Shown here: piece after piece, positions 1 through 28,462 of the stretch
Position numbering within the stretch: the first letter of the stretch is position 1
Layout of the letters: each line of letters begins with the position of its first letter
Made by a program: the position numbers and the translations under genes
Assembly (NCBI GenBank): GCA_041598955.1
Contig: JBFHXN010000001.1
Coordinates: forward strand, 1-39,693
DNA length: 39,693 nucleotides
Direction: 5' to 3'
Source: Desulfuromonadales bacterium
Lineage (GTDB): Bacteria > Desulfobacterota > Desulfuromonadia > Desulfuromonadales > JBFHXN01
The notes under the pieces: generated by a model
Databases searched by the model: none
Seen by the model: the letters and a program-made list of their open reading frames with translations, nothing else
What the model was told of the DNA's origin: nothing

Positions 1-318
1 ACCCCGGCCCACAGCCTCCCGCGCGTCGCCATCGGTCACCTCCCGCCCGTCCAGTTCCTGAACCAGGGCGAGGGCCCCGTTGGCAAGGAGCCCTTCGCGG
101 ACCTTCTCGCCGAGCTCACCCTGCTCGCGATCCACGAAGAGAACGCGGATGCTCCCCTCGCCGGTGGCCTCCAGGATATTGTTCTGGACCAGGGAGACCA
201 CGAGCACCAGCACGGCCGGCATGAGAAACAGCACCAGAAGACCGCCCCGGTCGCGGAAGAGCAGCAGAAGTTCCTTGCAGAATGTTGCCCAGAATTTATA
301 CATGGTTCCGTCAGACAT
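1..318 (-). CDS. ABC-2 type transporter permease, N-terminal part (gene continues beyond left window edge)
   Basis: Not in the ORF track because it runs off the window. The reverse complement of 1-318 reads MSDGTMYKFWATFCKELLLLFRDRGGLLVLFLMPAVLVLVVSLVQNN... The F-x-K-E...RD motif followed by a hydrophobic TM1 is typical of ABC-2 permease N-termini. It starts 24 nt downstream of the ATPase stop. An alternative ATG lies at 303. Confidence 0.6.
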   Translation of the reverse strand, partial: MSDGTMYKFWATFCKELLLLFRDRGGLLVLFLMPAVLVLVVSLVQNNILEATGEGSIRVLFVDREQGELGEKVREGLLANGALALVQELDGREVTDGDAREAVGRG

Positions 319-342
319 AGGGTTCGGGCCGGGGCCCCGGAT

Positions 343-1188
343 TCAATCCCGCAGATGCTTGCCTGTCAGCCGCAGGAAGAGTTCCTCCAGGTTGGAGCAC
401 CCCTCGGCGCCGGCCACGAGAGCCTCCGGTGGACCTTCGGTGAGAACGCGCCCCGCATCGACTATGGCCAGGTGGGTACAGAGCTGCCGGGCCTCTTCCA
501 TGTAGTGGGTGGTATAGACCATGGTCATCCCCTCCCGGTTCAACCGGAGGAGGTTCTCCAGGATCATGTTTCTCGACTGGGCGTCGATCCCGACGGTCGG
601 CTCGTCGAGAAAGAGGACTCGCGGCTCATGAAGCACCCCCGCGGCAAGGTTGGCACGGCGCTTCATGCCCCCGGAGTAGGTCGCCACCGGCCGGTCGGCG
701 CTCTCTCCCAGACCGACCATCCGCAGGCACTCCCCGATCCTGCCCTCGAGGGCTTTGCCCCGCAGCCCGTGCAGCCGCCCGAAGTACCGCAGGTTCTCCC
801 GGCCGGTGAGGCTGGGGTAGAGGGCAATCTCCTGGGGGACCAGCCCGATCATGCGCCGGGCCTCCCGGGGCTGTTTCATCACATCGACGCCACAGAGGAT
901 CATCTCCCCCGAGGTCGGCAGAAGCAGGGTGGTCATGATGGAGATGGCGGTGGTCTTCCCCGCCCCGTTGGGCCCCAGAAGACCCAAAACGCCGCCCTCG
1001 GCGATGGAGACGCTGAACCCGTTCAGGGCCGGCTGGCCCCCCCGCCTATAGACCTTGACCAGATCCCGGGCGTCCAGGGCCTTGGGTTTCGCAGCCCCGG
1101 CGGGCTTGTCCTGCCTGCCCGCCATCGGCACCGTTGCGGACGCGTTCATCGGGTCGCTCCTCGAATCGCCTCGGGGGTTCTCAGGCAA
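343..1188 (-). CDS. ABC transporter ATP-binding protein (ABC-2/DrrA-like exporter ATPase)
   Basis: Walker A GPNGAGKTT, ABC signature YSGGMKRR, Walker B LFLDEPTVGID. The start is uncertain (ATG at 1188, 1149 or 1125). The 1188 start overlaps the upstream stop by 8 nt. Confidence 0.9.
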   Translation of the reverse strand: MPENPRGDSRSDPMNASATVPMAGRQDKPAGAAKPKALDARDLVKVYRRGGQPALNGFSVSIAEGGVLGLLGPNGAGKTTAISIMTTLLLPTSGEMILCGVDVMKQPREARRMIGLVPQEIALYPSLTGRENLRYFGRLHGLRGKALEGRIGECLRMVGLGESADRPVATYSGGMKRRANLAAGVLHEPRVLFLDEPTVGIDAQSRNMILENLLRLNREGMTMVYTTHYMEEARQLCTHLAIVDAGRVLTEGPPEALVAGAEGCSNLEELFLRLTGKHLRD

Positions 1189-2182
1189 GGGCCTTCCCCA
1201 AGCTCCGGAAGAGCCGCTCTTCCCGGTCGGCGCATTCCCTCAGGATGTCGGCCAGCGCGCCGTAGGAGGTTTCGGCCGCCCCCCGGCCCCTGCAGTTGCG
1301 GGCCCCGAAAAGGGCGAACTCCCGCCAGCGGTCCCCGACGGCGGTCATCTCTCCGGAGATCTCCAGCAGGCGCCTCTCTCCCAGGACCTCGGCCGCTTCC
1401 TGCAGAAACGCCGCGTAGATGAAGCGAAAACCGCCCCCCCCTGTGCCGATCTCCTCCTGCATGCGGATCATATGCCCCAGGTAGAGAGAGGCCTTGCGTG
1501 GCCCCAGTTTTTCGGGCCAGCGCTCTATCTGGCCGGCAAGGAGCCGCATCCCCCTCACGCCGATGACCGGAACGGGATTTTTCACCATGGCCCGGCAGAC
1601 CTCCCGGATACCGGATCGCACCGCCCCGGGGAGGTCGAAATGGACCGGTGCCCCCTGGAGGCTGTACATCCGACCGCGTGGGGCCAGAGCCCCCTTGGCG
1701 AAACGGGCCCGGGCCAGATCCTGCGCAGAACAGACCACCGGTTCGTCCAGGACTGGATCGCTGATAAGGTAATTCTCCCCCTCCTTGCCGATCACAACCA
1801 GGTTGTGGGCATTGAAATGGAAGCGCAGGGCCGGGGGAAAATAAGGAAGCCAGAAGACCCCGGTCTGCAGGCCCGTGGGAATCCCTTGTTGGAGGTTCTG
1901 GTCGAGTTTCGCCATGGCCTTGGCCGGCAGGCGAAAGCGGGCGGTCGTCACACGGGCCCCCAACCTCCTGGTGACACGCTTGAAAATGCCTCCCGGGGCG
2001 TTTCGAAAGGTAATCAACGGCAGGCCGTTGATGCGCACCATGGGAAGGTAGCCGAAAAAGAGGCCGCTTCCGATGCCAAAAGCCATAGCCTCTGAAAGGA
2101 GGATGCCCTGGTGCCTGAAGAGGTTGGCCGTCACGCCGCTTTCACAGTGGGCGGATTGGCGATGGGGAAATTCGAGATTCAC
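1181..2182 (-). CDS. BtrH N-terminal domain / DUF4872-like protein (papain-fold, acyl-ACP transferase-like)
   Basis: The N-terminus HRQSAHCESGVTANLFRHQG with a conserved Cys, the length of about 330 aa and the C-terminal helical region resemble the butirosin BtrH family as I remember it. ATGA overlap with the upstream gene at 2179-2182. Confidence 0.65.
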   Translation of the reverse strand: MNLEFPHRQSAHCESGVTANLFRHQGILLSEAMAFGIGSGLFFGYLPMVRINGLPLITFRNAPGGIFKRVTRRLGARVTTARFRLPAKAMAKLDQNLQQGIPTGLQTGVFWLPYFPPALRFHFNAHNLVVIGKEGENYLISDPVLDEPVVCSAQDLARARFAKGALAPRGRMYSLQGAPVHFDLPGAVRSGIREVCRAMVKNPVPVIGVRGMRLLAGQIERWPEKLGPRKASLYLGHMIRMQEEIGTGGGGFRFIYAAFLQEAAEVLGERRLLEISGEMTAVGDRWREFALFGARNCRGRGAAETSYGALADILRECADREERLFRSLGKALA

Positions 2183-2625
2183 GAATTCTGGTCTTTCTCA
2201 AGCGGGGTGCGGAGAAGGGGAATCTCCGGTCTTTTCGGGACAAGGCCCAGCTCTGAGGGTTTCACGCCGAAAACCTCGGCGTATCGAGCCAGCAGGGCCG
2301 GCTTGAGCCGGCGGAAGATATCCGGGCGAAGATGTCTCCGCACCCGCCAGCGGGCCAAACCGGCATAAGTGGCCAGAAGGGATATATCCATCTGGCAGCG
2401 TGCCATCTGGAACGCCAGCGGGCTCGCTTCCCCGGCGGCGACCCGGCGGATGGCCGCCTCGATCTCTTCGCTGATGACCTCCCAGGCCTGTATATTGGCG
2501 ATATTTGCCGGGTCCCAGCCGGCGCTGGGCGCCAGTACGTAACGCCCCTGCTCGTCGATGGCGTAGCAGATCTCCCGCCACTGGCCGAAAAGGCACTTAT
2601 CCTGAGGGACTTCATTCTTGCGCAT
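2179..2625 (-). CDS. hypothetical protein, possible C-terminal helix-turn-helix
   Basis: 148-aa ORF with high third-position G+C in this frame. The segment MDISLLATYAGLARWRVRRHLRP...LLARYAEVFGVKPSEL looks XRE-type HTH-like. I recognise no firm family. Confidence 0.55.
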   Translation of the reverse strand: MRKNEVPQDKCLFGQWREICYAIDEQGRYVLAPSAGWDPANIANIQAWEVISEEIEAAIRRVAAGEASPLAFQMARCQMDISLLATYAGLARWRVRRHLRPDIFRRLKPALLARYAEVFGVKPSELGLVPKRPEIPLLRTPLEKDQNS

Positions 2626-2714
2626 GGACCAGGGACTCCGAACTGCCTTGAAGACTTCTTGAAAACATTGAAATGGAAAAACAGCCCGTAGGAACCGCTA
2701 CAAGGAGGGACAGA

Positions 2715-2748
2715 GGGCCTTTCCCGATGCTTTAGTCGGAAAGGGCCC
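2715..2748 (-). terminator. imperfect GC-rich hairpin downstream of the PagL-like gene (weak terminator or RNA stability element)
   Basis: GGGCCTTTCCCGA-N8-TCGGAAAGGGCCC, 11 of 13 positions pairing. No clear U-tract follows on the minus strand. Confidence 0.2.
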
Positions 2749-2769
2749 CCTTTGAGTTGTCGGGCCCTC

Positions 2770-3396
2770 TCAGAAATAGCGGCCGAGTTGCAGAAAGACC
2801 GAGTTGATTCCCCGGTTCTCGCGATGCAACTCGGCGTTGGAGACGTGATGCCCCCGCAAAGCGGCGAACCAGGTGGATCCGTCGTCGCCCTCGATCTCCA
2901 GGCCTAAGCCTGCCTGGGGATTGAAGTTGATCCTCAGGCCCTGTCCTTCGACCCGGAAGTCGGTGTAGACCAGGCCGATTCCCGCCTCGACGTAAGGACG
3001 GCAGGAGGAGGTGGCCCAGGGCTCGAGAAAATAGAGGGCCAGCATGTTGGCCGAAGCCATCGCCCGGGTCCCGGGGGCCATGGCAAGTCCCGCGCTCCCT
3101 TCCACCTTGAAGCGCAGCGCCTGGGGCGCCCGGTGGGGCCAGACGCGGTCGTAGTCGAAAAGGGCCACGGCCGAGACCAGGGCAAAGTCGATGTCGTTGG
3201 TCGGATCGTATGTCAGGCCATAGCCGACACCGGCCCCAAACCGGGTTGGAAGGAGTTGACCCTCTTCGGCCCCGCCGGGGGAGACCGCGAGCAGAGGCAG
3301 GATCAGGGCGAGAAGGCCGGCCCGCCACCCCACGGGGGGCTGAGTTCTAAAACTCGCCACGGCGTACGGTAAAGGAGCCAAAGCTCCCTTCTCCAT
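2770..3396 (-). CDS. PagL-like acyloxyacyl hydrolase / lipid A 3-O-deacylase family outer-membrane beta-barrel
   Basis: Signal-peptide-like WRAGLLALILPLLAVSPGGA. Alternating beta-strand pattern ending in the aromatic GRYF. C-terminal HHVSNAELHRENRGINS matches the H-x-S-N catalytic motif of PagL. The start is uncertain: ATG 3396 overlaps the upstream gene by 50 nt, and GTG at 3360 or 3333 is possible. Confidence 0.7.
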   Translation of the reverse strand: MEKGALAPLPYAVASFRTQPPVGWRAGLLALILPLLAVSPGGAEEGQLLPTRFGAGVGYGLTYDPTNDIDFALVSAVALFDYDRVWPHRAPQALRFKVEGSAGLAMAPGTRAMASANMLALYFLEPWATSSCRPYVEAGIGLVYTDFRVEGQGLRINFNPQAGLGLEIEGDDGSTWFAALRGHHVSNAELHRENRGINSVFLQLGRYF

Positions 3397-4444
3397 CGAT
3401 TTTCAGGCCGTAGACCGCGCGATCCCCCAGAGGGCCCTTGGCAGCGGCCCGGAAGGGAGTGTGCCCGGAGTCTGCGCCGGGCTGGGCAAATACCCTCCCT
3501 TCGCGCACGGCCAACCCAGCCACGGCGAGGTCGAAGGCCGGCCCCACGGGCAGTGCGCCGAAGAGGGGCGCATAGGCACCCACCTCGGCGCCGGGCGGAA
3601 GAAGCCCCCCGTAACCCGCGGCACACCGGGCGTGGCCGTCGGCGCCGAGCAACAGCAGGGCGTTTTCGGGCACCTTTGGCGCTCCGGCCGAAAGCCGACC
3701 GAAGCCCAGGTCGGTGAGATGTCCATATCGGGCCGCGGTACCCCCGGCGCGGGTGAGGAGGAAAAAGGCGGCACCTTCCCCGACCATCGCGCTCTGGCGC
3801 TCGAAGTGCAGGGGGCGCATCTCAGCCACCGGCGGGCCGAAGAAGCGATCCCAGCAATACCCCAGCACCGGGCAGCACTCGTCGACGCCGCCGAAGAGGA
3901 CCGCGTCGACCCGTTGCTCAACAAGCCACTGGCGGGCGCTGAGCAGGGCCGAGAAAACCGACATCTCGAACTGGCTCACTGTCAGGCTCGGCCCGGTGGC
4001 GCCAAGCAGGATCGAGACGTGGGCCGCCGCGGCGTTGTGAACCGAGTTTGAAAAATGGGTCGGCGATGCGCAGCCGTCCCCATCGTCAAGAACCGAATCG
4101 AGAAAGGAGAAGGTGGTGCGGGTGGCGCCGTAGCCGGTGGCGATCACAACCCCCAGTCGCCCCCGGTCCGCCCCCTCCATCCCCGCATCCTGAAGCGCCA
4201 GATGGGCTCCAAGTAGGGCCAGACGGGAGATGTGGTCGATACGGCGAAAGGCCCGCTTGGGGATGAACTCTTCCAGCCGGGAACTATCGGCGAGCAGGGC
4301 GGGCCGGGAGCCCCCCCCTTCTCCGGGCGCCGTGGCAAGAGCGCCTATCCGACTGGCTCCGGAGTCCAGGGCCTGCCGCAGATCGTCCACCCCGCAGCCG
4401 AAACCGCCCACCACTCCGATTCCCTCGATTGCCAGCGCCGTCAT
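3347..4444 (-). CDS. beta-ketoacyl synthase-like protein lacking the active-site Cys (chain-length-factor-like partner)
   Basis: Thiolase-fold KS similarity throughout. At the position of the A-C-S-S nucleophile motif it reads GPSLTVSQFEMSVFSAL, with no Cys. ATGA overlap with the upstream KS at 4441-4444. Confidence 0.8.
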   Translation of the reverse strand: MTALAIEGIGVVGGFGCGVDDLRQALDSGASRIGALATAPGEGGGSRPALLADSSRLEEFIPKRAFRRIDHISRLALLGAHLALQDAGMEGADRGRLGVVIATGYGATRTTFSFLDSVLDDGDGCASPTHFSNSVHNAAAAHVSILLGATGPSLTVSQFEMSVFSALLSARQWLVEQRVDAVLFGGVDECCPVLGYCWDRFFGPPVAEMRPLHFERQSAMVGEGAAFFLLTRAGGTAARYGHLTDLGFGRLSAGAPKVPENALLLLGADGHARCAAGYGGLLPPGAEVGAYAPLFGALPVGPAFDLAVAGLAVREGRVFAQPGADSGHTPFRAAAKGPLGDRAVYGLKIDGEGSFGSFTVRRGEF

Positions 4445-5643
4445 GATTTGTCTCCCGACCCGAAAACAATCACAGCGTTGTTGCCGCCGAAGGCCAGCGA
4501 TTCAGAGAGTGCGACCCGGCCTCGAACGGGGATCGTTTTTACCGTGGGCCGCCCGGGCAGATCGGGATCGGGGGTCGAAAACCCGACACTGGCCGGGATC
4601 TCCTTGCGCTCCAGACAGGCGACGGTGAGAGCCGCCTCGATCGCCCCGGCCGCGCCGAGGGTGTGGCCGGTATATCCCTTGGTGGAGAAAAAGGGGGTCT
4701 GCGGCAGCACCTCGCTGAGAACCCGGCTCTCCACCCGGTCATTGTCCGGGGTGCCGGTGCCGTGGGCGTTGACGAAGTCGATCTCCCCCGGTTGGGCGCC
4801 GCTGGAGGCGAGAGCCTCGGCGATGGCCCGCTTCAGCCCTGACCCGTCGGGACTCGGAGCGGTCAGGTGGTAAGCATCGCAGGCCGAGCCGTAACCGAGG
4901 ACGTAGGATCGGGCTCGCACTCCCCTCCTGCGATGCACCTCCTCGGATTCAAGGACCAGCATCGCAGCCCCCTCGCCGAGGTTGAGCCCCCGGCGGCTGA
5001 GATCGAAGGGACGGACCGCTTCGGCGTCGGTAATCATCAAAGAGATGAAGCCGTTGTAGGTCACCCGGCAGAGCTCATCGGCCCCCCCGGCGATGGCCAG
5101 GTCGCAGAGGCCTGCGCGGATCCACGAGGCGGCCAACCCGACGGCATCGGTCCCCGAGGAGCAGGCGTTGACCACCGTCTGGCAGGGGCCCCCTAAGCCG
5201 TAGCGGCGGGCGATCGCCCCCGCCGGGTTGCTCTGCAGAAAGCGCTCGATGGGAGTCATCGCTGGGGCTTCTCCCCGGCGGTATTGGCTGTAGAACTCCT
5301 CGTTGTTCATGGCGCTGCCCACCGTTGTCCCGACGCAGACGCCGACGCGCAGTCCGGCCAGATCAGCCGGGGCCCAGCCCGCGTCGGCGAAGGCCTCCTG
5401 CGCCGCGGCCAAAGCCAGGCTGGAGGTTCGCAGCAGACCGCTCCCCTCCCCGGGGACCTCGGCCAGCGCCTCATCCGGCACCTCGAAAACGGGATAGCGA
5501 CCCGGATGGCCGGTGGAAACGCGGCCGGGCGGCAGGGGGTTGCGCTTGCCGGCAAAGAGCGCCCCGGTGCATTCGGCCAGGTTGTTGCCGGCGGCGCACA
5601 GGCAGCCGAGGCCGGTGACGGCAACGGGAGCCTGGGAGATCAT
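4441..5643 (-). CDS. beta-ketoacyl-ACP synthase (FabF/KAS II-like)
   Basis: Active-site VVNACSSGTDAV, His motifs NAHGTGTPDND and GHTLGAAG. ATGA overlap with the ACP stop at 5640-5643. Confidence 0.9.
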   Translation of the reverse strand: MISQAPVAVTGLGCLCAAGNNLAECTGALFAGKRNPLPPGRVSTGHPGRYPVFEVPDEALAEVPGEGSGLLRTSSLALAAAQEAFADAGWAPADLAGLRVGVCVGTTVGSAMNNEEFYSQYRRGEAPAMTPIERFLQSNPAGAIARRYGLGGPCQTVVNACSSGTDAVGLAASWIRAGLCDLAIAGGADELCRVTYNGFISLMITDAEAVRPFDLSRRGLNLGEGAAMLVLESEEVHRRRGVRARSYVLGYGSACDAYHLTAPSPDGSGLKRAIAEALASSGAQPGEIDFVNAHGTGTPDNDRVESRVLSEVLPQTPFFSTKGYTGHTLGAAGAIEAALTVACLERKEIPASVGFSTPDPDLPGRPTVKTIPVRGRVALSESLAFGGNNAVIVFGSGDKS

Positions 5644-5894
5644 GCCGAAGTCCGCTGCTCGATGAAGGCCGCCAGGGTATCAACGGACTGCAGCGCGGGA
5701 CGACCCTGCTCCATGTCCTTGATCTCGACCCCGAAGTGCTTCTGCACCAGGACCACCAGTTCGACGGCATCGAGAGAATCGAGGCCCAGCCCTTCGCCGA
5801 ACAGAGGAGCGTCATCGACGATATCCTCCGGGCTCATATCCTCCAGGTTGAGCTCTTCCACCAGCACCTTCTTGAGTTTTTCCTTGATCGTCAT
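5640..5894 (-). CDS. acyl carrier protein
   Basis: MTIKEKLKKVLVEEL...GLDSLDAVELV carries the phosphopantetheine Ser motif. The ATG at 5894 lies just after the upstream stop at 5899. The longer track ORF (to 6044) is an unlikely extension that overlaps the acyltransferase. Confidence 0.9.
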   Translation of the reverse strand: MTIKEKLKKVLVEELNLEDMSPEDIVDDAPLFGEGLGLDSLDAVELVVLVQKHFGVEIKDMEQGRPALQSVDTLAAFIEQRTSA

Positions 5895-5898
5895 CGCT

Positions 5899-12117: not shown

Positions 12118-12145
12118 GGGGCAACTCTCCCGAAAAAGAGGATGG

Positions 12146-21969: not shown

Positions 21970-21981
21970 GGCAACCGGCCC

Positions 21982-22794
21982 TCACCCCTCCTGCCCGAGG
22001 CGCATTTCAGCAAGGTTGCGGGCGATCATTTCCTTGACCTTCTTCCTCATCCGCACATGCCCCTCTGGGCCAGGAAAATCCCCGGGATCGACGGGTTCCA
22101 GAGCGCGCAGGGTCACCGCGGCCGGCCGCAGCCAGAAACGGCCGGGGGGGAGCAGGGTGTCGGTGCCGGTGATGCACAGGGGCACCACCGGGCGCCCCGT
22201 TTCGACGGCAAGCCGAAAAGCGCCGCTGTAGAAGTGCTGCAGCTGCCCGTCCCGACTGCGGTGCCCTTCAGGGAAAAAGAGTACCGAGCCCCCCTCCTCC
22301 AGGATCCGCCGGCCGCTCCGGGAAATCTCCTCCCACTCCCAACTCTCCACGTTGAGGTACTCCGCCAGGCGCATGAAATAGGAGTACCAGAACATCCTGA
22401 AGGGCCACGCCCGAACCGCAAAGGCGACGTCGAAAAGGGGGAGCAGGGCCATGCAGTAGGTGTCGAAGAAGGAGAGATGGTTGATGACCAGGATCCCCGG
22501 GCCGGGGTTCCACCCCCTGGGAAACCCCTCCCTGCGAAAGCGGACGAAGGGGGACATGATGACCATCCACCCCCGGCCGTAGATCCAGATGAAATGCCGC
22601 ATGATCCTTCCCGGACTCCACCCTGTCACCACTTTCCAGAGCCCGAAGCCCAAAGGGAAGAGGATCACGCCGAGCAGAGTCCAGAGGGCTATGAGGGGAA
22701 AGGCCGCCAGGTTCATCGCAAGGAAGACCGGCCGGGCGAACAGTTTCTTTTTCACGCAGACCTTGTTGACTTGGAAGGCTTCGACCCGGGGCAC
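21982..22794 (-). CDS. PlsC-type 1-acyl-sn-glycerol-3-phosphate/lysophospholipid acyltransferase
   Basis: N-terminal TM helices, H-x4-D motif NHLSFFD, FPEGHRSRDG block. Confidence 0.85.
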   Translation of the reverse strand: MPRVEAFQVNKVCVKKKLFARPVFLAMNLAAFPLIALWTLLGVILFPLGFGLWKVVTGWSPGRIMRHFIWIYGRGWMVIMSPFVRFRREGFPRGWNPGPGILVINHLSFFDTYCMALLPLFDVAFAVRAWPFRMFWYSYFMRLAEYLNVESWEWEEISRSGRRILEEGGSVLFFPEGHRSRDGQLQHFYSGAFRLAVETGRPVVPLCITGTDTLLPPGRFWLRPAAVTLRALEPVDPGDFPGPEGHVRMRKKVKEMIARNLAEMRLGQEG

Positions 22795-23058
22795 TTAGGC
22801 CTTCTTTTCCAGCTGACGCTTCTTGTCGATGACGAAACGGTGAATGTCGCCGAGGGTGCGGATTTCGCGGATGGCTTCCTCTTCGCGGATCTTGAACCCG
22901 AAGGCCCCCTCGAGGACGATGACCATATCGACGGTATCGAGGCTGTCGAGTCCGAGGTCGTCGTAAAGGGTGGTGTCGGGTGTCATCTCAGAGAGCTCGA
23001 GCTCGAACTCCTCGGCCAGCGAGGTGTTGATCCGTTCAACGATTTGCTGATCAGTCAT
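22795..23058 (-). CDS. acyl carrier protein
   Basis: LGLDSLDTVDMV phosphopantetheine attachment motif. 87 aa. Confidence 0.9.
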   Translation of the reverse strand: MTDQQIVERINTSLAEEFELELSEMTPDTTLYDDLGLDSLDTVDMVIVLEGAFGFKIREEEAIREIRTLGDIHRFVIDKKRQLEKKA

Positions 23059-24286
23059 GAAGGTATCTCCTTAATACGATCGATGAATTGACGCCGCCGA
23101 GGGCGAAGTTGTTTTTGATAACCGCATTGACCGGCCCCTTTTCCACCTGCCGCAGATAGTTCAGGGGGCTGCAGGCCGGGTCGACATTGTGCAGGTTGAG
23201 TGTGGGGACAAGGGCGCCGCGGCGCATCATCTCGACACTGGCCAGCAACTCGATGGACCCGCTGGCCGCCATGGTATGTCCCATATGTCCCTTGAGGCTG
23301 CTGACAGGCACCCGGGACCCGAAGATGGCGTAAATGGCCTCGCTCTCCGCCACGTCACCCTGCTCGGTCGCCGTGGCGTGGGCATTGACGTAATCGACCT
23401 CGTCTGCCGCCATGCCAGCCTCGGCCAGCGCCAGACGCATGCAGCGCTCCATCGCTTCGGCATTGGGGTTGGCGATGTTGGTCGGATCGGAAATGGTGGC
23501 AAAACCGACGACCTCTGCGAGGATCGGCACCTCTCGTGACAAGGCCGAATCGAGGGACTCGAGAAGGACAACGCCAGCCCCTTCGGCGCAGACCACGCCG
23601 TCGCGCTCCCGGTCGAAGGGGCGCGGGGTCTGGGTCGGGGAGTCGTTGAAGCGCAGGGAAGCGGCGTTCATGATGTCAAAGGTGGCGGCCGTCAGCGGGT
23701 GGAACTCGTCCGCCCCTCCGCAGAGCATCTGTTCCTGCCGCCCCAGGGCGATTGACTCGTAACCGTAACCGATGGCGTGACAGCCGGTGGAACATGCCGC
23801 CGAGGGGGCAAGGATGCGGCCGGTGATTCCCAGGGTCTGGGCCACGTTGGCGGCACAGGAATGGTTCATGATCTGGAAGAAGAAGGTCGACTTCATCCGC
23901 TCCAGGCTGTGATCGGTGAAAAAATCCCGGAAAAACTCTTCCGTCGTGCCGGTGCTCCCCACGGTGGACCCGATCGAAACCCCCAACCGTCCGCTGCCGC
24001 ACTCTTTCTCGGAAAAGCCTGCCTGGGCCAGGGCATCATGGCAGGCGAGGGTGGCATAGACCGACATGGGTGACATGGAGCGGCGAAACTTGCGGGGTAT
24101 TTCCTTCGGATCGATCCCCGGCACCAGGGCAGCCACCCTGGTGCGGAGGCCGCCGACCTGGTCGAGCTCGGGAATGTTTCTGACCGCGCTTCGCCCCTCC
24201 AGAAGGGCGTCGATCAACGTGTCCCCCCCCCGACCGAAGGGGGAGACCGAACCCATGCCAGTGATCACCACACGTTTCAGCGACAT
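23051..24286 (-). CDS. beta-ketoacyl-ACP synthase
   Basis: MSLKRVVITGMGSVSPFG start, Cys motif APSAACSTGCHAIG, His motifs NAHATATEQGD and GHTMAASG. The ATG at 24286 is preferred, because the track extension to 24532 is Arg/Gly/Pro-rich and lies inside the oxidoreductase gene. Confidence 0.9.
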   Translation of the reverse strand: MSLKRVVITGMGSVSPFGRGGDTLIDALLEGRSAVRNIPELDQVGGLRTRVAALVPGIDPKEIPRKFRRSMSPMSVYATLACHDALAQAGFSEKECGSGRLGVSIGSTVGSTGTTEEFFRDFFTDHSLERMKSTFFFQIMNHSCAANVAQTLGITGRILAPSAACSTGCHAIGYGYESIALGRQEQMLCGGADEFHPLTAATFDIMNAASLRFNDSPTQTPRPFDRERDGVVCAEGAGVVLLESLDSALSREVPILAEVVGFATISDPTNIANPNAEAMERCMRLALAEAGMAADEVDYVNAHATATEQGDVAESEAIYAIFGSRVPVSSLKGHMGHTMAASGSIELLASVEMMRRGALVPTLNLHNVDPACSPLNYLRQVEKGPVNAVIKNNFALGGVNSSIVLRRYLHD

Positions 24287-25767
24287 AACTTCAATTCCTT
24301 TCGCATCCTGTCGTGCCCCAGAATGTTTCCGCAGACGAGGTAGCCGGAGAGCACCGCGCCGAGAACCCCCGGCGCCACGACCCCCTGGCCGGCCAGCCAG
24401 ACTCCCGGGATGCGGGTGGCGGGTTGGGGGTTGAATTGTCCGGCCTTGTGCTTGACCCCGTAGAGACCACCTCGGGGCGCCTGGGTGAAGTCGCGCATGG
24501 TCAGGGGGGTCGCCCCTTCCCTGAAAAGGCACTGCCCCTTCAGCTCCGGGATCTCTCCCTCGATGCGACTCCAGAGGCGACCCATCACCTCCTCTTTGTA
24601 CCGCCGGTAGGCTTCGGGCCGGCTTCGACTCCCGGAATCCGCCCAGCGCTCAACCTCCCGGTAGTCGGCGGGACAGATGACGATCAAGCCGCCGGCCCCA
24701 TCTCCCCCTTCCGCCGGCGATGCGGCGGTGACGTAAAGACAGCGCCCCTCGAGGCTCCCTTCGGTCAAAACCGGCGGCCAGGACTCCTCCCCGCCGAGAA
24801 AGAGATTTCTTTTGTTCAGACGGTCCACCGGCTTCTCGGTCACGGCGTAAAGGACAAATGCCGAGGCAGTCTCCTCCAGTCTTTCCAGCCGATGGCGATA
24901 GGCGGGACGCAACGATGCATCGCGCACCAGATTCAGAAAGAGGTGGGGATGGATCGTGGAGACGCAGCCGCTGCAGGGCAGGTCAGTGCCGTCCTCGAGC
25001 CGTATCCCGGAAAGGCCGCCCGACGGGGAGAGCAGAACCTTCTCCGCCCCCCTCCCCAGGAACAGCTCAACCCCCAACTGGCCGAGCCGTTTCTCAAAGG
25101 CCTTGGCCAGGCTCAGCCCCCCGCCCCGCAATCCGTACACCGACTGGTAATAGGTTCCGACCACGGCGGCATGCTGGGAAAAGGAGACCTCTTCCGGCGA
25201 CACCCCGTAGAGAAGGGCGTGGAGGGAGAGCAGCCTCTTGAGAGGGGCGGACGCCGTCAACCGGTCGAGAACCTCGCCCAGGGTTTCGGAATGCACCTGT
25301 CCGAGGGCCGAGAAGCTCTCCCAGGACGCGTCGAGGTTGAGGTAGGGAAAGGTGTCGCAGACCTCGCGGACCTTGCGCAAATACTCGGCCACCCCCCGGG
25401 CTTCACTGGGGAAGGCGTCGCTGAGGGCCTCTCCCAGGGACTCATAGCCGAAAGGGAAGCCAAACTCCTTCTCGGTGCCAGGTCCGCGATAACCGTCGAA
25501 GCCGGCCTGGTCGAAGGGGTATTTGGAAAGATCGCCGGAGAGCCCCAGATGGCGGAAGGAGAGGTCGAGTGTTTCCCCATCCCCGAGGCCACCGGTGTAG
25601 TGAAAGCCCGTATCGAAATAGACCCCCTTGCGGGAAAAGCCGCGCAGCAGGGGGGCGAGCTTCGGCGCCTTCTCCACCAGTGCCACCCGAAATCCGGCCT
25701 GGGCCAAAAGCACCGCGGTCGTCATCCCGGAAACGCCGGCGCCGATGACCACGTAGTCGAAGCTCAT
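24277..25767 (-). CDS. FAD/NAD(P)-dependent oxidoreductase, phytoene desaturase (CrtI)-like family
   Basis: N-terminal dinucleotide fold DYVVIGAGVSGMTTAVLLAQAGFRVALVEK. About 496 aa. C-terminal GVWLAGQGVVAPGVLGAVLSG is typical of the CrtI/amine-oxidase fold. Confidence 0.85.
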   Translation of the reverse strand: MSFDYVVIGAGVSGMTTAVLLAQAGFRVALVEKAPKLAPLLRGFSRKGVYFDTGFHYTGGLGDGETLDLSFRHLGLSGDLSKYPFDQAGFDGYRGPGTEKEFGFPFGYESLGEALSDAFPSEARGVAEYLRKVREVCDTFPYLNLDASWESFSALGQVHSETLGEVLDRLTASAPLKRLLSLHALLYGVSPEEVSFSQHAAVVGTYYQSVYGLRGGGLSLAKAFEKRLGQLGVELFLGRGAEKVLLSPSGGLSGIRLEDGTDLPCSGCVSTIHPHLFLNLVRDASLRPAYRHRLERLEETASAFVLYAVTEKPVDRLNKRNLFLGGEESWPPVLTEGSLEGRCLYVTAASPAEGGDGAGGLIVICPADYREVERWADSGSRSRPEAYRRYKEEVMGRLWSRIEGEIPELKGQCLFREGATPLTMRDFTQAPRGGLYGVKHKAGQFNPQPATRIPGVWLAGQGVVAPGVLGAVLSGYLVCGNILGHDRMRKELKLCR

Positions 25768-26984
25768 TCGGAAAACCTCAGGACCAGGCAGGAGTTGGTC
25801 CCTCCAAAACCGGCCGAATTGCAGAGTACATGCTCCGGGGGTCGCGGTTGCACCTCGGTGACAATTTTCAGTCGGGCCGAACTCTCGTCCGGAGTTTCGA
25901 AATTGGCGTTGGGCGCGATGAACCCCTGCCGAGCCATGATCGTCGAGTAGACGACCTGGGAGGCGCCGGACATCCAGAGTTCATGCCCGGTCATCGACTT
26001 CAGTGACGACACCCAGGGGGTCCGGTTTCCGAAGACGGCGACGATGTTGTCCGCTTCAGCCGCATCTCCCGCCGGGGTTGAAGTGGCGTGGGCACAGAGA
26101 TAGTCGATATCGGCCGGCGTCCTGCCCGCTCCCTCCAGGGCCTTGCGCATCGCCCGCTGCAAGCCGTCCTGGCTCGGCACCGAAAGGTGGCTGCCATCCG
26201 AGGAGAAGGCGTAGGAGCAGACTTCGCCGAGGATGGTGGCGCCCCGGGCCTTGGCCAGGTCATATCGCTCCAGGACCAGGGCTGCCGCCCCGCCGCTCGG
26301 AACCAGGCCGTCACGATTGGCGTCGAAGGGACGGCTGGCGGCGTGGGGCTCATCGGTGCGGGTGGAAAAGGCGTTCAAGGCGTCGAAACTGCACATCGAT
26401 TCCCAATTCACTTCCTGCGCCCCGCCGCAGATCATGCGCTCCTGGCGACCCAGGGCGATGAGATCGGCGGCTTGACCGACGGCATGCCCACCGCTGGAGC
26501 AGGCACTGCTGATGGTCCAGCAGGCGCCTCGGGTCTGCAGCAGGGTGTTGAGATTCATGGTGATGCAGGAGGTCATGGAACGAAAGACAAAACCGCTGCC
26601 GATCTGTTTCGTTTCCCCCTTCTCGCGCAGGATGTCGACCTGTTCGATGGCGGCGATGCAGCTGGAGTCGCAGCCGAAGATCATTCCCGTATTCTCGTTC
26701 CGGATCTCTTCCTCTTCCAGGCGGGCCAACGCCAAGGCATCCCGGGCGGCGGAGTAAGCGTGGATGGCGAAGTCGGGCATGGTTTTTCGCTGTTTTTTGG
26801 ACAGCACGGCGGCGGCGTCAAACCCCCGAATCGCGCCGGTCAAGGGACTGCGGAAGCCAAGCCGGAGCCGCTCTTCGTCAACAACGATCCCCGACCGTCC
26901 CTGGCGCAGAGCATCCCCGACAGTGGTCAAATCCTGCCCGAGGCAGGAGACGATACCAATTCCCGTAATAGCGACCCTGTACAT
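25764..26984 (-). CDS. beta-ketoacyl-ACP synthase (FabB/FabF-like)
   Basis: TISSACSSGGHAVG (Cys), CAHATSTPAGD and GHELWMSG (His, His). Its stop overlaps the downstream start as ATGA (25764-25767). Confidence 0.9.
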   Translation of the reverse strand: MYRVAITGIGIVSCLGQDLTTVGDALRQGRSGIVVDEERLRLGFRSPLTGAIRGFDAAAVLSKKQRKTMPDFAIHAYSAARDALALARLEEEEIRNENTGMIFGCDSSCIAAIEQVDILREKGETKQIGSGFVFRSMTSCITMNLNTLLQTRGACWTISSACSSGGHAVGQAADLIALGRQERMICGGAQEVNWESMCSFDALNAFSTRTDEPHAASRPFDANRDGLVPSGGAAALVLERYDLAKARGATILGEVCSYAFSSDGSHLSVPSQDGLQRAMRKALEGAGRTPADIDYLCAHATSTPAGDAAEADNIVAVFGNRTPWVSSLKSMTGHELWMSGASQVVYSTIMARQGFIAPNANFETPDESSARLKIVTEVQPRPPEHVLCNSAGFGGTNSCLVLRFSE

Positions 26985-27057: not shown

Positions 27058-27795
27058 CTACATGTAAGCGCCGCCATTGACGGAGAATACCTGGCCTGTA
27101 ATGTAGGTTGCCTTCTCGGAGCAGAGGAAACTGACCATGTCCGCCACCTCCTGGGGTGTCCCGATCCGCCCCAGGGGAATCATGGGGAGAATTCGTTCCC
27201 GGGGGAGATCCTGAATCATCTCCGTCTCGATGAAACCGGGAGAAACGGCATTGACCAGGACGTTCCGCCGGGCCACCTCGGCCGCCAGGGACCGGGTCGC
27301 GCCGATGAGGCCGGCCTTGGCCGTGCTGTAGTTGACCTGGCCGGGGACGCCACTTTCTCCAGAGGTGGACACGATATTGATGATCCTGCCTTGCCGCCTT
27401 TTCAACATCTGTGTGAGTACCGTCTTGGTTGCGTAAAAGAATCCGTCCAAATGAACCGCGAGGACATCCTTCCACTCCCGATCCTTCATCCAGACCATCA
27501 GGCCGTCGCGGGCAAAACCGGCGTTATTGACCAAGGCGAAGGGAGTTGCCGTTTCCAGCAGGGGCTCGAGTGCCTTTCGCGTCGCCTCTGCATCGGCCAC
27601 ATCGAAGGGAAGCAGGCGGCATTGGCCGCCTGCTTCCTCGACCTTTCGGGCCACCTGCTCGGCGGCCTTCGAATCACTGCGAAAATTGAGCCAAATATCA
27701 AAACCGTTTCGGGCCAAATCCACGGCAATGGCGGCGCCTATTCCTTTGCTCCCGCCGGTTACAAGGGCTATTTTCCGTTTTTCTTCCGAACCCAT
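27058..27795 (-). CDS. fabG: 3-oxoacyl-ACP reductase (SDR, FabG family)
   Basis: TGGSKGIGAAIA cofactor motif, NNAG, catalytic S...YSTAK. 245 aa. Confidence 0.95.
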   Translation of the reverse strand: MGSEEKRKIALVTGGSKGIGAAIAVDLARNGFDIWLNFRSDSKAAEQVARKVEEAGGQCRLLPFDVADAEATRKALEPLLETATPFALVNNAGFARDGLMVWMKDREWKDVLAVHLDGFFYATKTVLTQMLKRRQGRIINIVSTSGESGVPGQVNYSTAKAGLIGATRSLAAEVARRNVLVNAVSPGFIETEMIQDLPRERILPMIPLGRIGTPQEVADMVSFLCSEKATYITGQVFSVNGGAYM

Positions 27796-27827
27796 CGCTC
27801 TCCCCCGTCTCCTTCAGCCGCTTTCTG

Positions 27828-27855
27828 AAAATAGTGGCCCGAATCAATAAGGCAA
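27828..27855 (-). promoter_or_regulatory. candidate sigma70-type promoter upstream of the KR gene
   Basis: The minus strand reads TTGCCT-16 nt-TATTTT about 35 nt upstream of the fabG-like ATG, with GGAGA as the RBS. This is a pattern match only. Confidence 0.25.
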
Positions 27856-27865
27856 AAAACCTTTT

Positions 27866-28462
27866 CTAATCCTTGACTTTGACAACCTTCCCGTCCTCCC
27901 CGAACTCGACGGCGATAGTGCCGAACCGATTGGTCCAGTAAACCCAGACCGGGGCGTTCAAGGAAGGAGTTTTATGGGCCGCGGGATAACCAAGGGCTGT
28001 CATGACACCGTCCCTGGTCATGCCGACCAAAGCCTTCCCTTCCTTGATCCCTTTCTGGTCTACGCTGGAAAACTTTTTGGCCGGGACGGCATCGGGTGAA
28101 GTGATTAAGGAAATATACTCATTCACCTTCATCCCCATGCGGGGCTCACTGTATTCGAAATCAACCAGGAAATCTTGATTTTTGCTGACAAAGGAAAAAC
28201 TTCGTCCTGATATTTTAGTGATCGTTATCGGAGATCCGGCCGGAACGATCAAATGAACTGGACCTGGATTCGTATAATTTGCATAGCTTGCTTGATAAAC
28301 CTTATTGCCTCTTCTGTCCAATTGTTGCTGGACGTGAATGTTGTACTTGGTATACGCAGCCTTCTCGATTGCAACAGCAGGAACACAACCAACCAGGCAA
28401 AAACTGAAGAATAAAACAATTGCCCATATACCCCTGGATCTTTGCTTAGACGCGGACATCAT
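27866..28462 (-). CDS. lipoprotein of unknown function, possible BamE/SmpA-OmlA-like C-terminal domain
   Basis: MMSASKQRSRGIWAIVLFFSFCLVGC has a lipobox L-V-G-C. C-terminal GMTRDGVMTALGYPA resembles the BamE-fold motif. G+C and codon usage are markedly lower than in the neighbours. RBS GGGGGAGG lies upstream. Confidence 0.7.
   Translation of the reverse strand: MMSASKQRSRGIWAIVLFFSFCLVGCVPAVAIEKAAYTKYNIHVQQQLDRRGNKVYQASYANYTNPGPVHLIVPAGSPITITKISGRSFSFVSKNQDFLVDFEYSEPRMGMKVNEYISLITSPDAVPAKKFSSVDQKGIKEGKALVGMTRDGVMTALGYPAAHKTPSLNAPVWVYWTNRFGTIAVEFGEDGKVVKVKD

Follow-up and report, generated by a model that had tools for sequence, protein, structure and literature searches.

A gene cluster widely conserved in anaerobic Desulfuromonas/Geobacter-type bacteria, probably for a B12 radical SAM-tailored pigment lipid

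The window analysed here (the whole stretch of DNA, 39,693 nt) carries at positions 1-28462 what is probably the larger part of a biosynthetic locus, conserved and about 34 kb long, from an uncultured Desulfuromonas-like anaerobe. The cluster is real and is widely conserved in anaerobic Desulfuromonas/Geobacter-type bacteria. It likely joins three gene sets, each described before. Set A would be an aryl-polyene (APE)/flexirubin-type type II polyketide synthase with lipid anchoring and export genes (g28-g27, g25-g13 and g09). Set B would be a dialkylresorcinol (dar) accessory set (g03, g02 and g01/g00, with the acyl carrier protein ACP3 and a StlD/DarB ketosynthase just past the window edge). 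Set C would be a 'lipid biosynthesis B12 radical SAM' module, formed by g11, a second ketosynthase, chain-length-factor-like partner and acyl carrier protein (KS2/CLF2/ACP2) and an LpxL-like acyltransferase; its companions, in a locus of the type that antiSMASH calls 'ladderane', would be the B12 radical SAM genes g10 and g12 and the CrtI/RetSat-like g26. Judging from the encoded proteins, we favour as the likely product not a ladderane but a flexirubin/APEL-like pigment lipid of the outer membrane, which B12 radical SAM enzymes would tailor.

Organization and extent of the locus

GC3 frame analysis and Pfam/NCBIfam scans show that minus-strand genes follow one another without a break from 28462 to the edge of the window, and all coordinates below refer to that strand. 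The preliminary description of this DNA had counted 28 consecutive minus-strand genes; the co-directional run stands, the count does not, as 30 genes lie in positions 1-28462 (g29 to g00, the last cut by the edge). It had also reported about ten 4-nt stop-start overlaps and gaps mostly under 75 nt, with which the junction analysis agrees. Eleven 4-nt start/stop overlaps are possible among the g29-g00 junctions (g27/26, g20/19, g18/17, g16/15, g15/14, g14/13, g12/11, g11/10, g07/06, g06/05 and g03/02), or ten without g11/g10. The g11/g10 overlap, created by an alternative g10 start at 9494, is in doubt, since on a 99.8%-identical contig the public annotation starts g10 at 9476. The remaining junctions are 8-14 nt overlaps or 0-73 nt gaps, with the single exception of g04/g03, where 144 nt separate the end of g04 (2770) from the start of g03 (2625).

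Minus-strand genes continue upstream of the cluster as far as 39693. The 5' end was placed at g29/g28 because of a 438-nt intergenic stretch (28463-28900), around which the GC content dips to about 0.54, and because the upstream neighbours differ in relatives. The first cluster gene, g29 (27866-28462), encodes a lipoprotein (lipobox LVGC) with no match in Pfam or NCBIfam profile scans; its ATG is preceded by a strong RBS (AGGGGGAGG), and a homologue occupies the matching position in L081, an 80%-identical relative.

The 3' end lies beyond the window, a cut of which the preliminary description took no account. Contig L084, 99.77% identical to the window, extends the cluster by 5.6 kb; past the ABC-2 permease it carries ACP3, then the StlD/DarB ketosynthase (577 bits vs cutoff 450), then a fourth B12 radical SAM gene (rSAM4). 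The same 3' gene set recurs in all four loci with enough flank, two of them from cultured organisms (D. soudanensis and Geoalkalibacter halelectricus). The genes may not form a single transcription unit: 144 nt lie ahead of g03, and the DarB/rSAM4 unit is convergent.

Inside the window, set B comprises a DarG-family protein of the dialkylresorcinol/flexirubin accessory set (g03, 2179-2625; NF053536, 147 bits vs cutoff 70), DarH, a BtrH-related acyltransferase with an N-terminal Cys13 (g02, 1181-2182; NF053550, 482 bits vs cutoff 300; BtrH_N and DUF4872), a DrrA/NodI-like ABC transporter ATPase found by Pfam/NCBIfam scans (g01, 343-1149) and the N-terminus of an edge-cut ABC-2 permease (g00, 1-303), whose full 446-aa gene is on L084. 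None of the NCBIfam matches to the six ORFs in the 5.6-kb extension can be read as the aromatase DarA, for which the library may hold no model; the ring could thus remain a cyclohexanedione.

Polyketide synthase core, starter and export genes

The APE-type core announced in the preliminary description is present, and its domain assignments and gene inventory were all reproduced by Pfam/NCBIfam scans and motif checks. The ketoreductase is a FabG/ApeQ/FlxB-like SDR protein (g28, 27058-27795; adh_short_C2, 188 bits) that passes one FabG equivalog model (287 vs 273) and scores 305 bits with FlxB_rubin_SDR (cutoff 340). Profile scans and alignment identify a FabB-like ketosynthase (g27, 25764-26984), an ApeR-like one of the PRK09116 type (g25, 23051-24286; NF006587, 422 bits vs cutoff 470) and an ApeO-like one that is also AmcF-like (g14, 12889-14022; 220 bits), all with the Cys-His-His triad intact. 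The ApeC-like product of g13 (12146-12892) is a shortened chain-length-factor-like partner of 248 aa, the N-terminal half only, with Lys in place of Cys. ACP1 (g24, 22795-23058; profile scans) has its DSL motif at residue 38. Two hotdog dehydratases accompany them: g20 (18526-18984), ApeP-like, has a weak FabZ match and a Geomonas orthologue that matches PF22817 (ApeP-like), and g16 (14477-14863), ApeI-like, has weak FabA and ApeI-like matches, a GHFPG motif and an orthologue that matches PF22818. An ApeK-like 4HBT thioesterase follows (g15, 14019-14480; 4HBT_2, 62 bits). Pfam scans found no enoyl reductase encoded in the cluster, nor does the cluster hold a class-I methyltransferase of the ApeB kind.

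Starter supply is represented by a PaaK/FlxY-like adenylating ligase, putatively activating the starter acid (g22, 20653-21969; FlxY_rubin, 455 bits vs cutoff 520), and by an MIO-dependent aromatic amino-acid ammonia-lyase, or aminomutase (g21, 19018-20604; Lyase_aromatic, 556 bits; ASG motif). The lyase scores below cutoff with the NCBIfam models for HAL (504-509 bits) and FlxA (477 bits). Its Ser86-His87 aligns with Ser82-His83 of P. putida HAL, the HAL-type Ser-His, and its C-terminal NQDVVSM matches SgTAM; among orthologues 75-88% identical, LIRSHAAG is invariant in 14 of 15. Since the selectivity switch lacks the TAL-type His, the starter may not be 4-coumarate.

Anchoring and export are covered by an ApeD-like PlsC-type (lyso)phospholipid acyltransferase (g23, 21982-22794; Acyltransferase, 63 bits; HX4D motif), a fusion of a GT2 glycosyltransferase with a DUF2062 membrane domain in an ApeJ-like role (g09, 6854-8023; PpgS-like, 86 bits), an ApeL-like LolA-type periplasmic lipid carrier (g19, 17909-18529; LolA, 63 bits; LolA2_flexi, 89 bits vs cutoff 125), an ApeM-like MMPL/RND exporter (g18, 15530-17905; MMPL, 67 bits; HpnN-like, 131 bits) and, at the position of the LolB-like ApeN, a lipoprotein with lipobox LCGC (g17, 14850-15533) that has no family match in Pfam and NCBIfam scans and is syntenic in 57% of loci.

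In alignment, the triad is intact in four ketosynthases of the cluster, and two partners lack the Cys; two DSL-motif ACPs and two lipobox proteins lie within the window. The four ketosynthases, three radical SAM proteins, ACPs, PlsC acyltransferase and MIO lyase all retain intact catalytic motifs.

B12 radical SAM module and its companions

The second B12-binding radical SAM enzyme (g11, 9491-10855) matches TIGR04072 over its full length (705 bits vs cutoff 360), a model for 'lipid biosynthesis B12-binding/radical SAM protein' with the NCBI name rSAM_ladder_B12. After TIGR04072 the protein scores best with the BzaD and TsrM families, and among solved structures TsrM 6wte comes closest. Homologues number more than 2046 at E<=1e-20, in at least 547 genomes at species level. 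This kind of cluster is already known: it has been seen in genomes since 2009, NCBIfam curates a model for the family and antiSMASH has a class for it; the novelty implied earlier is overstated. The third enzyme is divergent (g12, 10852-12117; scans and the motif CRFDCFPC) and the first is HpnJ/BchE-like, far below the cutoffs (g10, 8025-9476); CxxxCxxC occurs in all three such proteins of the window.

KS2 (g06, 4441-5643) has an intact triad by scans and alignment, and in CLF2 (g05, 3347-4444) Cys is replaced by Glu, the first His by Ala, and the region of the second His is absent. ACP2 is of the PRK09184 type (g07, 5640-5894; 73 bits vs cutoff 70; DSL at residue 39). The LpxL/PatA-type acyltransferase (g08, 5899-6867; Lip_A_acyltrans, 41 bits) yielded no HX4[DE] motif in a search of the protein, and g04 (2770-3396) encodes a PagL-like outer-membrane beta-barrel protein (PagL, 66 bits).

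The FAD enzyme g26 (24277-25767; Amino_oxidase, 58 bits) belongs to the CrtI/CrtISO/RetSat superfamily and could, on this resemblance, be a desaturase, isomerase or saturase. Every NCBIfam carotenoid model scores far below cutoff, the closest solved structure (CrtI 4dgk) gives only 29 bits, and homologues carry the JGI name 'all-trans-retinol 13,14-reductase'. Its synteny is kept in eight loci (L081, L083, L040, L053, L054, L059, L075 and L079).

Conservation across genomes

Dozens of genomes show the cluster in nearly the same gene-for-gene arrangement, among them those of the cultured Desulfuromonas soudanensis, Geoalkalibacter halelectricus, Geomonas agri and Geothermobacter hydrogeniphilus; the 5' half is in unchanged order in L081 and Geomonas agri. 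Among 35 species genomes with the full +-10 kb around g11, genes g05-g08 are found in 86-94%, g12 in 80%, g10 in 69% and g13-g20 in 57-80%. Order and orientation are held gene for gene in Desulfuromonadales, Geobacterales and other lineages at only 45-70% protein identity, and the block stays constant while flanking genes vary. Lyase and ligase are missing, g23 adjoining g20, from nine loci (L002, L014, L032, L035, L037, L048, L049, L063 and L065), and the dar set from other relatives. Genes g10 and g12-g14 are absent from Desulfovibrio-type loci; beyond an occasional g10, acidobacterial loci carry just g11 and g05-g08. Since many relatives do without either the lyase and ligase or the dar genes, the cluster is built of modular parts, which may serve more than one product.

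Proposed pathway

We propose a route to the pigment lipid in which every step is assigned by homology. The MIO lyase would give an aryl- or heteroaryl-acrylate, and the ligase would put this acid on ACP1. Ketosynthases g25/g27, the KS/CLF pair g14/g13, ketoreductase g28 and dehydratases g20/g16 would produce a polyene without enoyl reduction, and a second chain would be primed and extended on ACP2 by KS2/CLF2. The B12 radical SAM enzymes would modify chains or rings, most probably by C-methylation, to which the BzaD and TsrM relationships of g11 lend support. That role is a guess from family resemblance, and g10 could equally well carry out cyclisation or ring contraction of the BchE/HpnJ kind. 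DarB would condense a pair of acyl chains to give a dialkyl-cyclohexanedione or a resorcinol, and attachment of the parts to an anchor, either a lipid or a glycolipid, would fall to DarH, the GT2 and the acyltransferases of the PlsC and LpxL types. Finally, the LolA-like, lipoprotein, MMPL, ABC-2 and PagL-like proteins would carry the product to the outer membrane.

Alternative explanations

Separate APE, radical SAM lipid and dar operons with unrelated products could have become neighbours by chance, as might be thought from the 144-nt gap and from lineages in which the sets occur apart (Desulfovibrio-type and acidobacterial loci, loci without lyase or dar genes). Very little probability attaches to this, given the gene order held at 45-70% protein identity, the unchanged block between differing flanks and the translationally coupled overlaps that span set boundaries, such as g14/g13 next to g12/g11. 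Tested in this way, the association of radical SAM, CrtI-like and lyase genes with the APE core held, being syntenic in many genomes; as far as synteny tells, the combination is not a chance juxtaposition. The several KS paralogues, the CrtI-superfamily g26 and the missing enoyl reductase would also suit an oxygen-independent PUFA/hydrocarbon pathway, proposed by Rattray et al. for Desulfotalea/Kuenenia, with CrtI-like and radical SAM enzymes desaturating acyl chains, and D. psychrophila, with a syntenic cluster, does make polyunsaturated hydrocarbons (PMC2649909). We regard it as unlikely here: a starter module (MIO lyase and ligase), dar genes and a StlD/DarB ketosynthase are present, the complete LolA/MMPL/lipoprotein export set is typical of APE/flexirubin pigments, and a desaturase would be unnecessary because KS/KR/DH cycles without enoyl reduction already give polyenes. 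Later work on other bacteria reportedly traced such hydrocarbons to the Pfa and Ole genes.

The link to ladderane candidates with deltaproteobacterial look-alikes, made in the preliminary description, is real: Rattray et al. (2009) described the synteny of such clusters between anammox bacteria and deltaproteobacteria and proposed for ladderanes FAS-like clusters that include genes of the B12 radical SAM and phytoene-desaturase-like types (PMC2649909). From these clusters derives the antiSMASH 'ladderane' class, so labelling such loci. B12 radical SAM enzymes that cyclise ACP-bound polyenoyl chains to ladderane-like (cyclobutane) or other carbocyclic lipids would agree with this descent, with the place of g11 in rSAM_ladder_B12, with the likeness of g10 to the ring-forming or ring-contracting BchE and HpnJ, and with the parts shared with anammox 'Cluster I' (KS/CLF, ACP, FabZ-like, PDH-like and B12 radical SAM genes). 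It is nevertheless highly improbable, as ladderanes were not found in D. psychrophila (PMC2649909), and anammox workers call Cluster I, its involvement itself unproven, exclusive to ladderane producers. The top PDB match of KS2, 9s5h_B (219 bits), is barely above ordinary FabF (214 bits), and KS precedes CLF here, whereas in anammox bacteria the mutated partner comes first.

Relation to known systems

No characterised product was found in the literature for any member of this cluster type, in keeping with the preliminary description, which knew of none for the deltaproteobacterial version. Its division into an APE core and genes outside it was right for the core and partly wrong for the remainder. 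APE lipids have two polyene chains, built on two ACPs, with ApeD/ApeJ for anchoring and ApeL/M/N for export (10.1101/2020.12.19.423268); the second ACP, set aside as non-core, is a normal ape component, as are the GT2 and an acyltransferase (ApeF, ApeJ and ApeD, respectively). In flexirubin synthesis the first steps belong to a TAL and a ligase, and the MIO lyase g21, taken for an extra, forms with g22 a pair that resembles the initiation pair FlxA/FlxY (PMC3992019). None of the equivalog models FlxA, FlxB, FlxY and LolA2 reaches its cutoff here. The BtrH-like protein and the ABC-2 exporter are likewise no mere additions: DarH, the DarG-family g03 and the exporter match the dar cluster of Azoarcus, where hypothetical, BtrH-like, ABC, ACP and KS accessory genes are also found (PMC3949708).

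Organization and boundaries of the cluster

An unbroken chain of minus-strand genes runs from 28462 to position 1 of the window (~64% GC), as followed by GC3 frame analysis and by Pfam and NCBIfam scans. It contains 30 genes, counted from g29 to g00 in the direction of transcription; of g00, an ABC-2 permease gene interrupted by the edge of the window, only the N-terminal part is included. Analysis of the junctions gave intergenic gaps of 0-73 nt, with the sole exception of 144 nt between g04 (PagL-like) and g03 (DarG family), 11 possible 4-nt start/stop overlaps and several further junctions that overlap by 8-14 nt. The preliminary description, made from the sequence alone, of a co-directional chain with short junctions is correct, and its domain assignments were reproduced by the profile scans.

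Minus-strand genes also run on upstream of g29, as far as 39693, parted from it by a 438-nt intergenic region around which the GC content dips to ~0.54. The gene order of the 5′ half (KR, KS, CrtI-like, KS, ACP, acyltransferase, ligase, MIO lyase, dehydratase, LolA, MMPL, lipoprotein, ApeI-like, thioesterase) is common to an 80%-identical metagenomic relative (L081/L082) and to cultured Geomonas agri (L083). Since the genes further upstream differ in each of them, the 5′ end of the cluster is placed at g29/g28.

The 3′ end lies beyond the window, and the continuation was read on L084, a metagenome-assembled contig (JBFHVF010000001.1, GCA_041589715.1) that is 99.77% identical to window positions 1-12182 and extends 5.6 kb further. 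The extension carries the full 446-aa ABC-2 permease and a third ACP, followed on the opposite strand by an StlD/DarB-family ketosynthase and a fourth, HpnR-like B12 radical SAM gene (rSAM4), then by a small PNPOx-like protein and an alpha/beta-hydrolase. The convergent DarB/rSAM4 unit (L084:13641-16648, outside the window) has the same layout in the related loci L088, L089 and L071, and an ending with ACP3, DarB and rSAM4 was found in all four loci with enough flank, namely L084, Desulfuromonas soudanensis WTL, Geoalkalibacter halelectricus and a Geobacter MAG. The protein that follows DarB/rSAM4 has 134-137 aa in L084 and L088, and its PNPOx match is weak in L084. Directly after the 3′ end, in the Geoalkalibacter halelectricus strain only, there is an RPE65-family (carotenoid-cleavage-oxygenase-like) gene, L089:18003-19544; it is odd for an anaerobe to have a member of a polyene-cleaving enzyme family adjoining its polyene cluster.

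Upstream region and regulatory signals

Region 28901-39693 of the minus strand holds a separate gene set, encoding two CoA-transferase subunits, two acyl-CoA dehydrogenases, a family III CoA-transferase, a 4Fe-4S protein, the corrinoid adenosyltransferase CobA/BtuR (33549-34079, minus strand), ETF alpha and beta, and an HdrD-like oxidoreductase that is a membrane protein with NarI-like, Fer4 and CCG domains. The set looks like an anaerobic acyl-CoA oxidation or ETF-to-quinone module. Membership of its CoA-transferase, acyl-CoA dehydrogenase, ETF and CobA genes in the cluster was considered and rejected, since relatives carry other genes upstream of FabG/g29. For the same reason the proximity of the adenosyltransferase, ~5 kb upstream of the cluster start and ~21 kb from the B12 radical SAM genes of the cluster, may be a coincidence. 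Between 31977 and 33531 two long minus-strand ORFs overlap in different frames; the CoA_transf_3 match of ORF 31977-33449 is limited to residues 219-466 (profile positions 1-270 of 366), and the 4Fe-4S match of ORF 32791-33531 is confined to the C-terminus. The stretch is probably made up of two adjacent shorter genes, and a truncation or a frameshift in the CoA-transferase at 31977-33449 is possible.

No RNA element, cobalamin riboswitches included, reached the gathering score when the whole window was scanned with Rfam. Searches for sigma-70 promoters and terminators between 27700 and 29100 yielded nothing above chance on the minus strand, and the sigma-54 consensus gave chance-level matches only, all outside the intergenic region. 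The sequence TTGACC-17 nt-TAAGAA, ~55 nt upstream of g29, was recognized by eye only as a possible promoter and proves nothing.

Aryl-polyene core and probable starter lyase

Alignments showed that the Cys-His-His residues are retained in four ketosynthases, among them g14, g25 and g27 of the aryl-polyene (APE) core. The CLF-like partner g13 amounts to the N-terminal half of a KS (248 aa), in which Lys stands in place of the Cys. The core is completed by two ACPs, ACP1 and ACP2, both with the DSL motif, by the ApeI-like (g16) and ApeP-like (g20) dehydratases and the SDR ketoreductase g28, and by the MMPL transporter g18 with the LolA-like carrier g19; the PlsC-type acyltransferase carries HX4D. 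The CrtI-like flavoenzyme g26 belongs only loosely to the CrtI superfamily (29 bits to CrtI 4dgk), and its homologues are labelled RetSat by JGI; judging from its sequence it could act as a desaturase, an isomerase or a saturase.

The lyase g21 carries the ASG motif of MIO lyases. Its Ser86-His87 pair aligns exactly with Ser82-His83 of Pseudomonas putida HAL, the Watts selectivity switch. The second diagnostic position, occupied in HAL by Glu but in TAL and PAL by Gln according to the flexirubin paper (PMC3992019), is Gln in g21, within an NQDVVSM motif identical to that of SgTAM. The two parts of the protein also differ in their best matches, which are HALs for the N-terminal 170 residues and Tyr/Phe aminomutases and TAL for the C-terminal 169. 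Orthologues in 15 syntenic clusters (L081, L082, L071, L017, L038, L043, L034, L025, L045, L083, L041, L009, L011, L042 and L012) show 75-88% identity, and 14 of them have LIRSHAAG unchanged; the lyase is markedly more conserved than its neighbours rSAM2 (45-70%) and the CrtI-like protein (~50-56%). The lyase g21 and its orthologues may constitute a subfamily, and the unusual mixed HAL/TAL signature merits an enzyme assay.

Flexirubin-like and dialkylresorcinol genes

Several proteins resemble flexirubin families, with scores that come near to the Bacteroidota-trained NCBIfam cutoffs and fall under them: FlxY, by far the best-scoring family for the ligase g22 (455 versus 520), FlxB (305 versus 340), LolA2_flexi (89 versus 125) and FlxA (477 versus 700). 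The accessory genes of dialkylresorcinol (dar) synthesis surpass their cutoffs, with 482 versus 300 for DarH (g02, a BtrH-related acyltransferase) and 147 versus 70 for the DarG family (g03). DarB itself is found outside the window, 1.5 kb past its edge on L084, with 577 versus 450 for NF005293 and 474 versus 550, below the cutoff, for a narrower DarB model; an StlD/DarB ketosynthase takes the same position in L071, L088 and L089. Among the six ORFs past the window edge no NCBIfam match could be read as the aromatase DarA, a result meaningful only if the library holds a DarA model, and past DarB and rSAM4 in L084 the only proteins are the 134-aa PNPOx-like one and the alpha/beta-hydrolase. We know of no earlier description of DarB and a B12 radical SAM enzyme as a pair.

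Radical SAM module

The three B12-binding radical SAM proteins of the window keep CxxxCxxC. Among them g11 (rSAM2), with the radical SAM motif CPHNCSYC and a B12 domain, matches TIGR04072 over the whole profile (positions 1-443 of 443) with a score of 705 versus a cutoff of 360. The families that fit it best after TIGR04072 are BzaD and the Trp C2-methyltransferase TsrM, TsrM being also the closest solved structure; g10 (rSAM1) is only distantly like HpnJ and BchE, and g12 (rSAM3) is divergent. The neighbourhood expected of a TIGR04072-type cluster, with FabF paralogues (one without Cys), an ACP and an acyltransferase, corresponds to g05-g08, which accompany g11 in 86-94% of 35 loci. CLF2 (g05) has Glu instead of the Cys and retains none of the His residues.

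A connection of KS2/CLF2/ACP2 with anammox amxFabF2, amxFabFmut and amxACP through PDB matches was also considered and could not be sustained. The top match of KS2 is 9s5h_B, and 9s5h_C is a top match of CLF2; since the scores are barely above that of ordinary FabF (219 versus 214 bits) and the PDB codes are not given in the anammox preprint, orthology is not claimed. In the PDB, ACP2 (5640-5894) is best matched by the 86-aa 'acyl carrier protein' 9ls6_A with 55.6 bits, the next ACPs reaching ~36 bits. An H-x4-[D/E] motif is absent from the entire LpxL/PatA-type protein g08 (5899-6867), which may rely on a separated His/Glu pair as in PatA or may be catalytically divergent.

Distribution and synteny

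Homologues of g11 number more than 2046 at E<=1e-20, many of them named 'lipid biosynthesis B12-binding/radical SAM protein', and, with one genome scanned per species, relatives of this marker gene turned up in at least 547 species-level genomes; the cluster type is very widespread in anaerobic sediment and subsurface bacteria. Synteny was analyzed by tblastn of all window proteins against the best 80 loci. Near gene-for-gene synteny was found in Desulfuromonadales, Geobacterales and other 'deltaproteobacterial' lineages, and reduced versions in Desulfovibrionales, Desulfobulbales, Acidobacteriota, Lentisphaerota, Verrucomicrobiota and Omnitrophota. Among the 35 loci whose flanks reach the full +-10 kb, g05-g08 are kept beside g11 at the frequencies stated for its neighbourhood, g12 in 80%, g09 (GT2) in 77% and g10 in 69%; for the APE-type genes g13-g20 the figure is 57-80%. 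The lyase and the ligase are missing in many loci, g23 then abutting g20 directly; the dar set is variable, and Desulfovibrio-type loci are devoid of rSAM1, rSAM3 and KS/CLF1. The preliminary description had named, among the results that would undo it, a chance juxtaposition of the radical SAM, CrtI-like and lyase genes with the APE core; the comparison with the best 80 loci speaks against this. The association of the gene sets is real and modular.

In the Geobacter MAG (L071, VFJK01000094.1), rSAM1-3 and the APE core occur together with the lyase, the ABC-2 exporter, ACP3, DarB and rSAM4, whereas KS2/CLF2/ACP2, the LpxL-like acyltransferase and DarG/DarH are lacking at their usual place; ACP3 is followed by an extra 442-aa protein without family matches. 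The radical SAM genes thus do not strictly require the KS2/CLF2/ACP2 module nearby. Cultured carriers of the cluster are D. soudanensis WTL, Geoalkalibacter halelectricus, Geomonas agri and Geothermobacter hydrogeniphilus, and its presence in cultured strains makes the question of the product experimentally approachable.

Proposed pathway

By analogy with the APE lipids (APELs), we propose that the lyase and the ligase would load an aryl- or heteroaryl-acrylate onto ACP1, which would be extended to a polyene by the ketosynthases g25 and g27, KS/CLF g14/g13, the KR and the two dehydratases. A second chain would be primed and extended on ACP2 by KS2/CLF2; the anammox KS/CLF-like heterodimer decarboxylates malonyl-ACP and so initiates synthesis. 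The B12 radical SAM enzymes would tailor chains or rings, most likely by C-methylation, a reaction favoured by the nearest characterised relatives and by the lack of an ApeB-type methyltransferase. DarB would form a dialkyl-cyclohexanedione or resorcinol; DarH, two other acyltransferases and the GT2 would assemble the lipid, and the LolA-like, lipoprotein, MMPL, ABC-2 and PagL-like proteins would export it.

A bolder alternative to C-methylation is that the TIGR04072-type and other B12 radical SAM enzymes form C-C bonds, by cyclisation or cross-linking, on ACP-bound polyenoyl or resorcinol-lipid intermediates, giving rise to an undescribed class of carbocyclic polyene-derived outer-membrane lipids, possibly with a non-tyrosine head, e.g. 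a histidine-derived urocanyl. We give this alternative little chance of being right. Should it be true, culturable Desulfuromonas and Geobacter would offer a tractable model for the suspected ladderane chemistry. With C-methylation retained as the most likely reaction, the product and the radical SAM chemistry constitute a testable question; the cluster itself is unlikely to surprise a specialist, and identification of its product would add a case to those known for such enzymes.

Comparison with known clusters

The core used by Grammbitter et al. 2020 for ape clusters (KS, CLF, two ACPs, two dehydratases, KR and transporter) is matched here, together with ApeD-, ApeH-, ApeJ-, ApeK-, ApeL- and ApeN-like functions. 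Common to the ape clusters of E. coli CFT073 and Xenorhabdus doucetiae are the KS (ApeO/R), the truncated CLF (ApeC), two ACPs, the KR, two hotdog dehydratases (ApeI/P), thioesterase, adenylating ligase, PlsC-type acyltransferase, GT2, LolA-like protein, lipoprotein and RND/MMPL exporter. The ape products are APELs, whose two polyene chains are assembled on two ACPs and attached to a glycerol-phosphate-GalNAc anchor (10.1101/2020.12.19.423268), and this logic of two acyl chains on two ACPs is paralleled here by gene content. On the other hand, the ApeB-type methyltransferase is absent, and the starter probably comes from the MIO lyase instead of being 4-hydroxybenzoate. Three B12 radical SAM genes (four with the extension), a full second KS/CLF pair, the CrtI/RetSat-like enzyme, the dar genes, the PagL-like barrel and the ABC-2 exporter are additional.

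Flexirubin synthesis is initiated by a lyase and a ligase (PMC3992019), and the MIO lyase and PaaK-like ligase found here may follow the same logic. The flexirubin clusters of Chitinophaga pinensis and Flavobacterium johnsoniae and the arcuflavin/dar cluster of Azoarcus sp. BH72 share with this one the KR, LolA, exporter, GT and acyltransferase, and likewise the DarG/DarH-type proteins, the ABC transporter, the ACP and the StlD/DarB ketosynthase beside polyene genes. The accessory genes around Azoarcus darAB (darD hypothetical, darE BtrH-like, darF/darI ABC, darC ACP; PMC3949708) are reproduced by g02, g03, the ABC ATPase and permease, ACP3 and DarB. The differences are a Ser-His instead of a His-Leu lyase switch, hosts that are strict anaerobes, and the B12 radical SAM and CrtI-like genes, which do not figure in the gene tables and text consulted on the flexirubin and Azoarcus clusters (PMC3992019, PMC3949708).

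The preliminary description also pointed to ladderane-candidate clusters with deltaproteobacterial look-alikes, as is borne out by Rattray et al. 2009, who described synteny of Kuenenia stuttgartiensis (Kuste3335-3352) with loci of Desulfotalea psychrophila, Geobacter and Pelobacter, comprising SAM radical enzymes, phytoene-dehydrogenase-like and phenylacetyl-CoA-ligase-like proteins, a glycosyltransferase and a membrane protein, along with additional FabF paralogues, some of which lack the Cys (PMC2649909). No ladderanes were found in D. psychrophila, a carrier of the syntenic cluster (PMC2649909). The present cluster shares with the ladderane type the curated family of B12 radical SAM protein and the extra FabF paralogues, Cys-less ones among them, and, in synteny, phytoene-desaturase-like, phenylacetyl-CoA-ligase-like, glycosyltransferase and membrane exporter genes; a putative link of g11 to Kuste3342/3343 is drawn from PMC2649909 and the family name, the 80 loci and 120 proteins compared being without Kuenenia sequences. 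With respect to Kuenenia, it is a deltaproteobacterial-type member with a full APE/flexirubin and dar complement, devoid of counterparts of the SAM methyltransferase Kuste3347 and other anammox-only genes.

The 'ladderane' class of antiSMASH 3 was built on Rattray et al. 2009. Later surveys found such clusters expressed in Desulfobacterota, Myxococcota and others, giving no function, and reviews up to 2026 list none for these B12 radical SAM enzymes. A characterised product of the cluster type was not found in the literature, in agreement with the preliminary description of its deltaproteobacterial version; nor was any mention of TIGR04072 or any paper combining ladderane, arylpolyene and Geobacter, and the genome papers on Pelobacter and G. 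bemidjiensis contained nothing pertinent. Genome mining routinely labels the type 'ladderane' or 'arylpolyene'; the former is misleading for these loci, whose gene content is that of flexirubin/APE-plus-dialkylresorcinol pigment-lipid clusters together with a B12 radical SAM module. The window is a further example of an already described, chemically uncharacterised cluster type, to which the present analysis adds that the deltaproteobacterial version combines flexirubin/APE and dar genes, extends past the window and is found in cultured strains.
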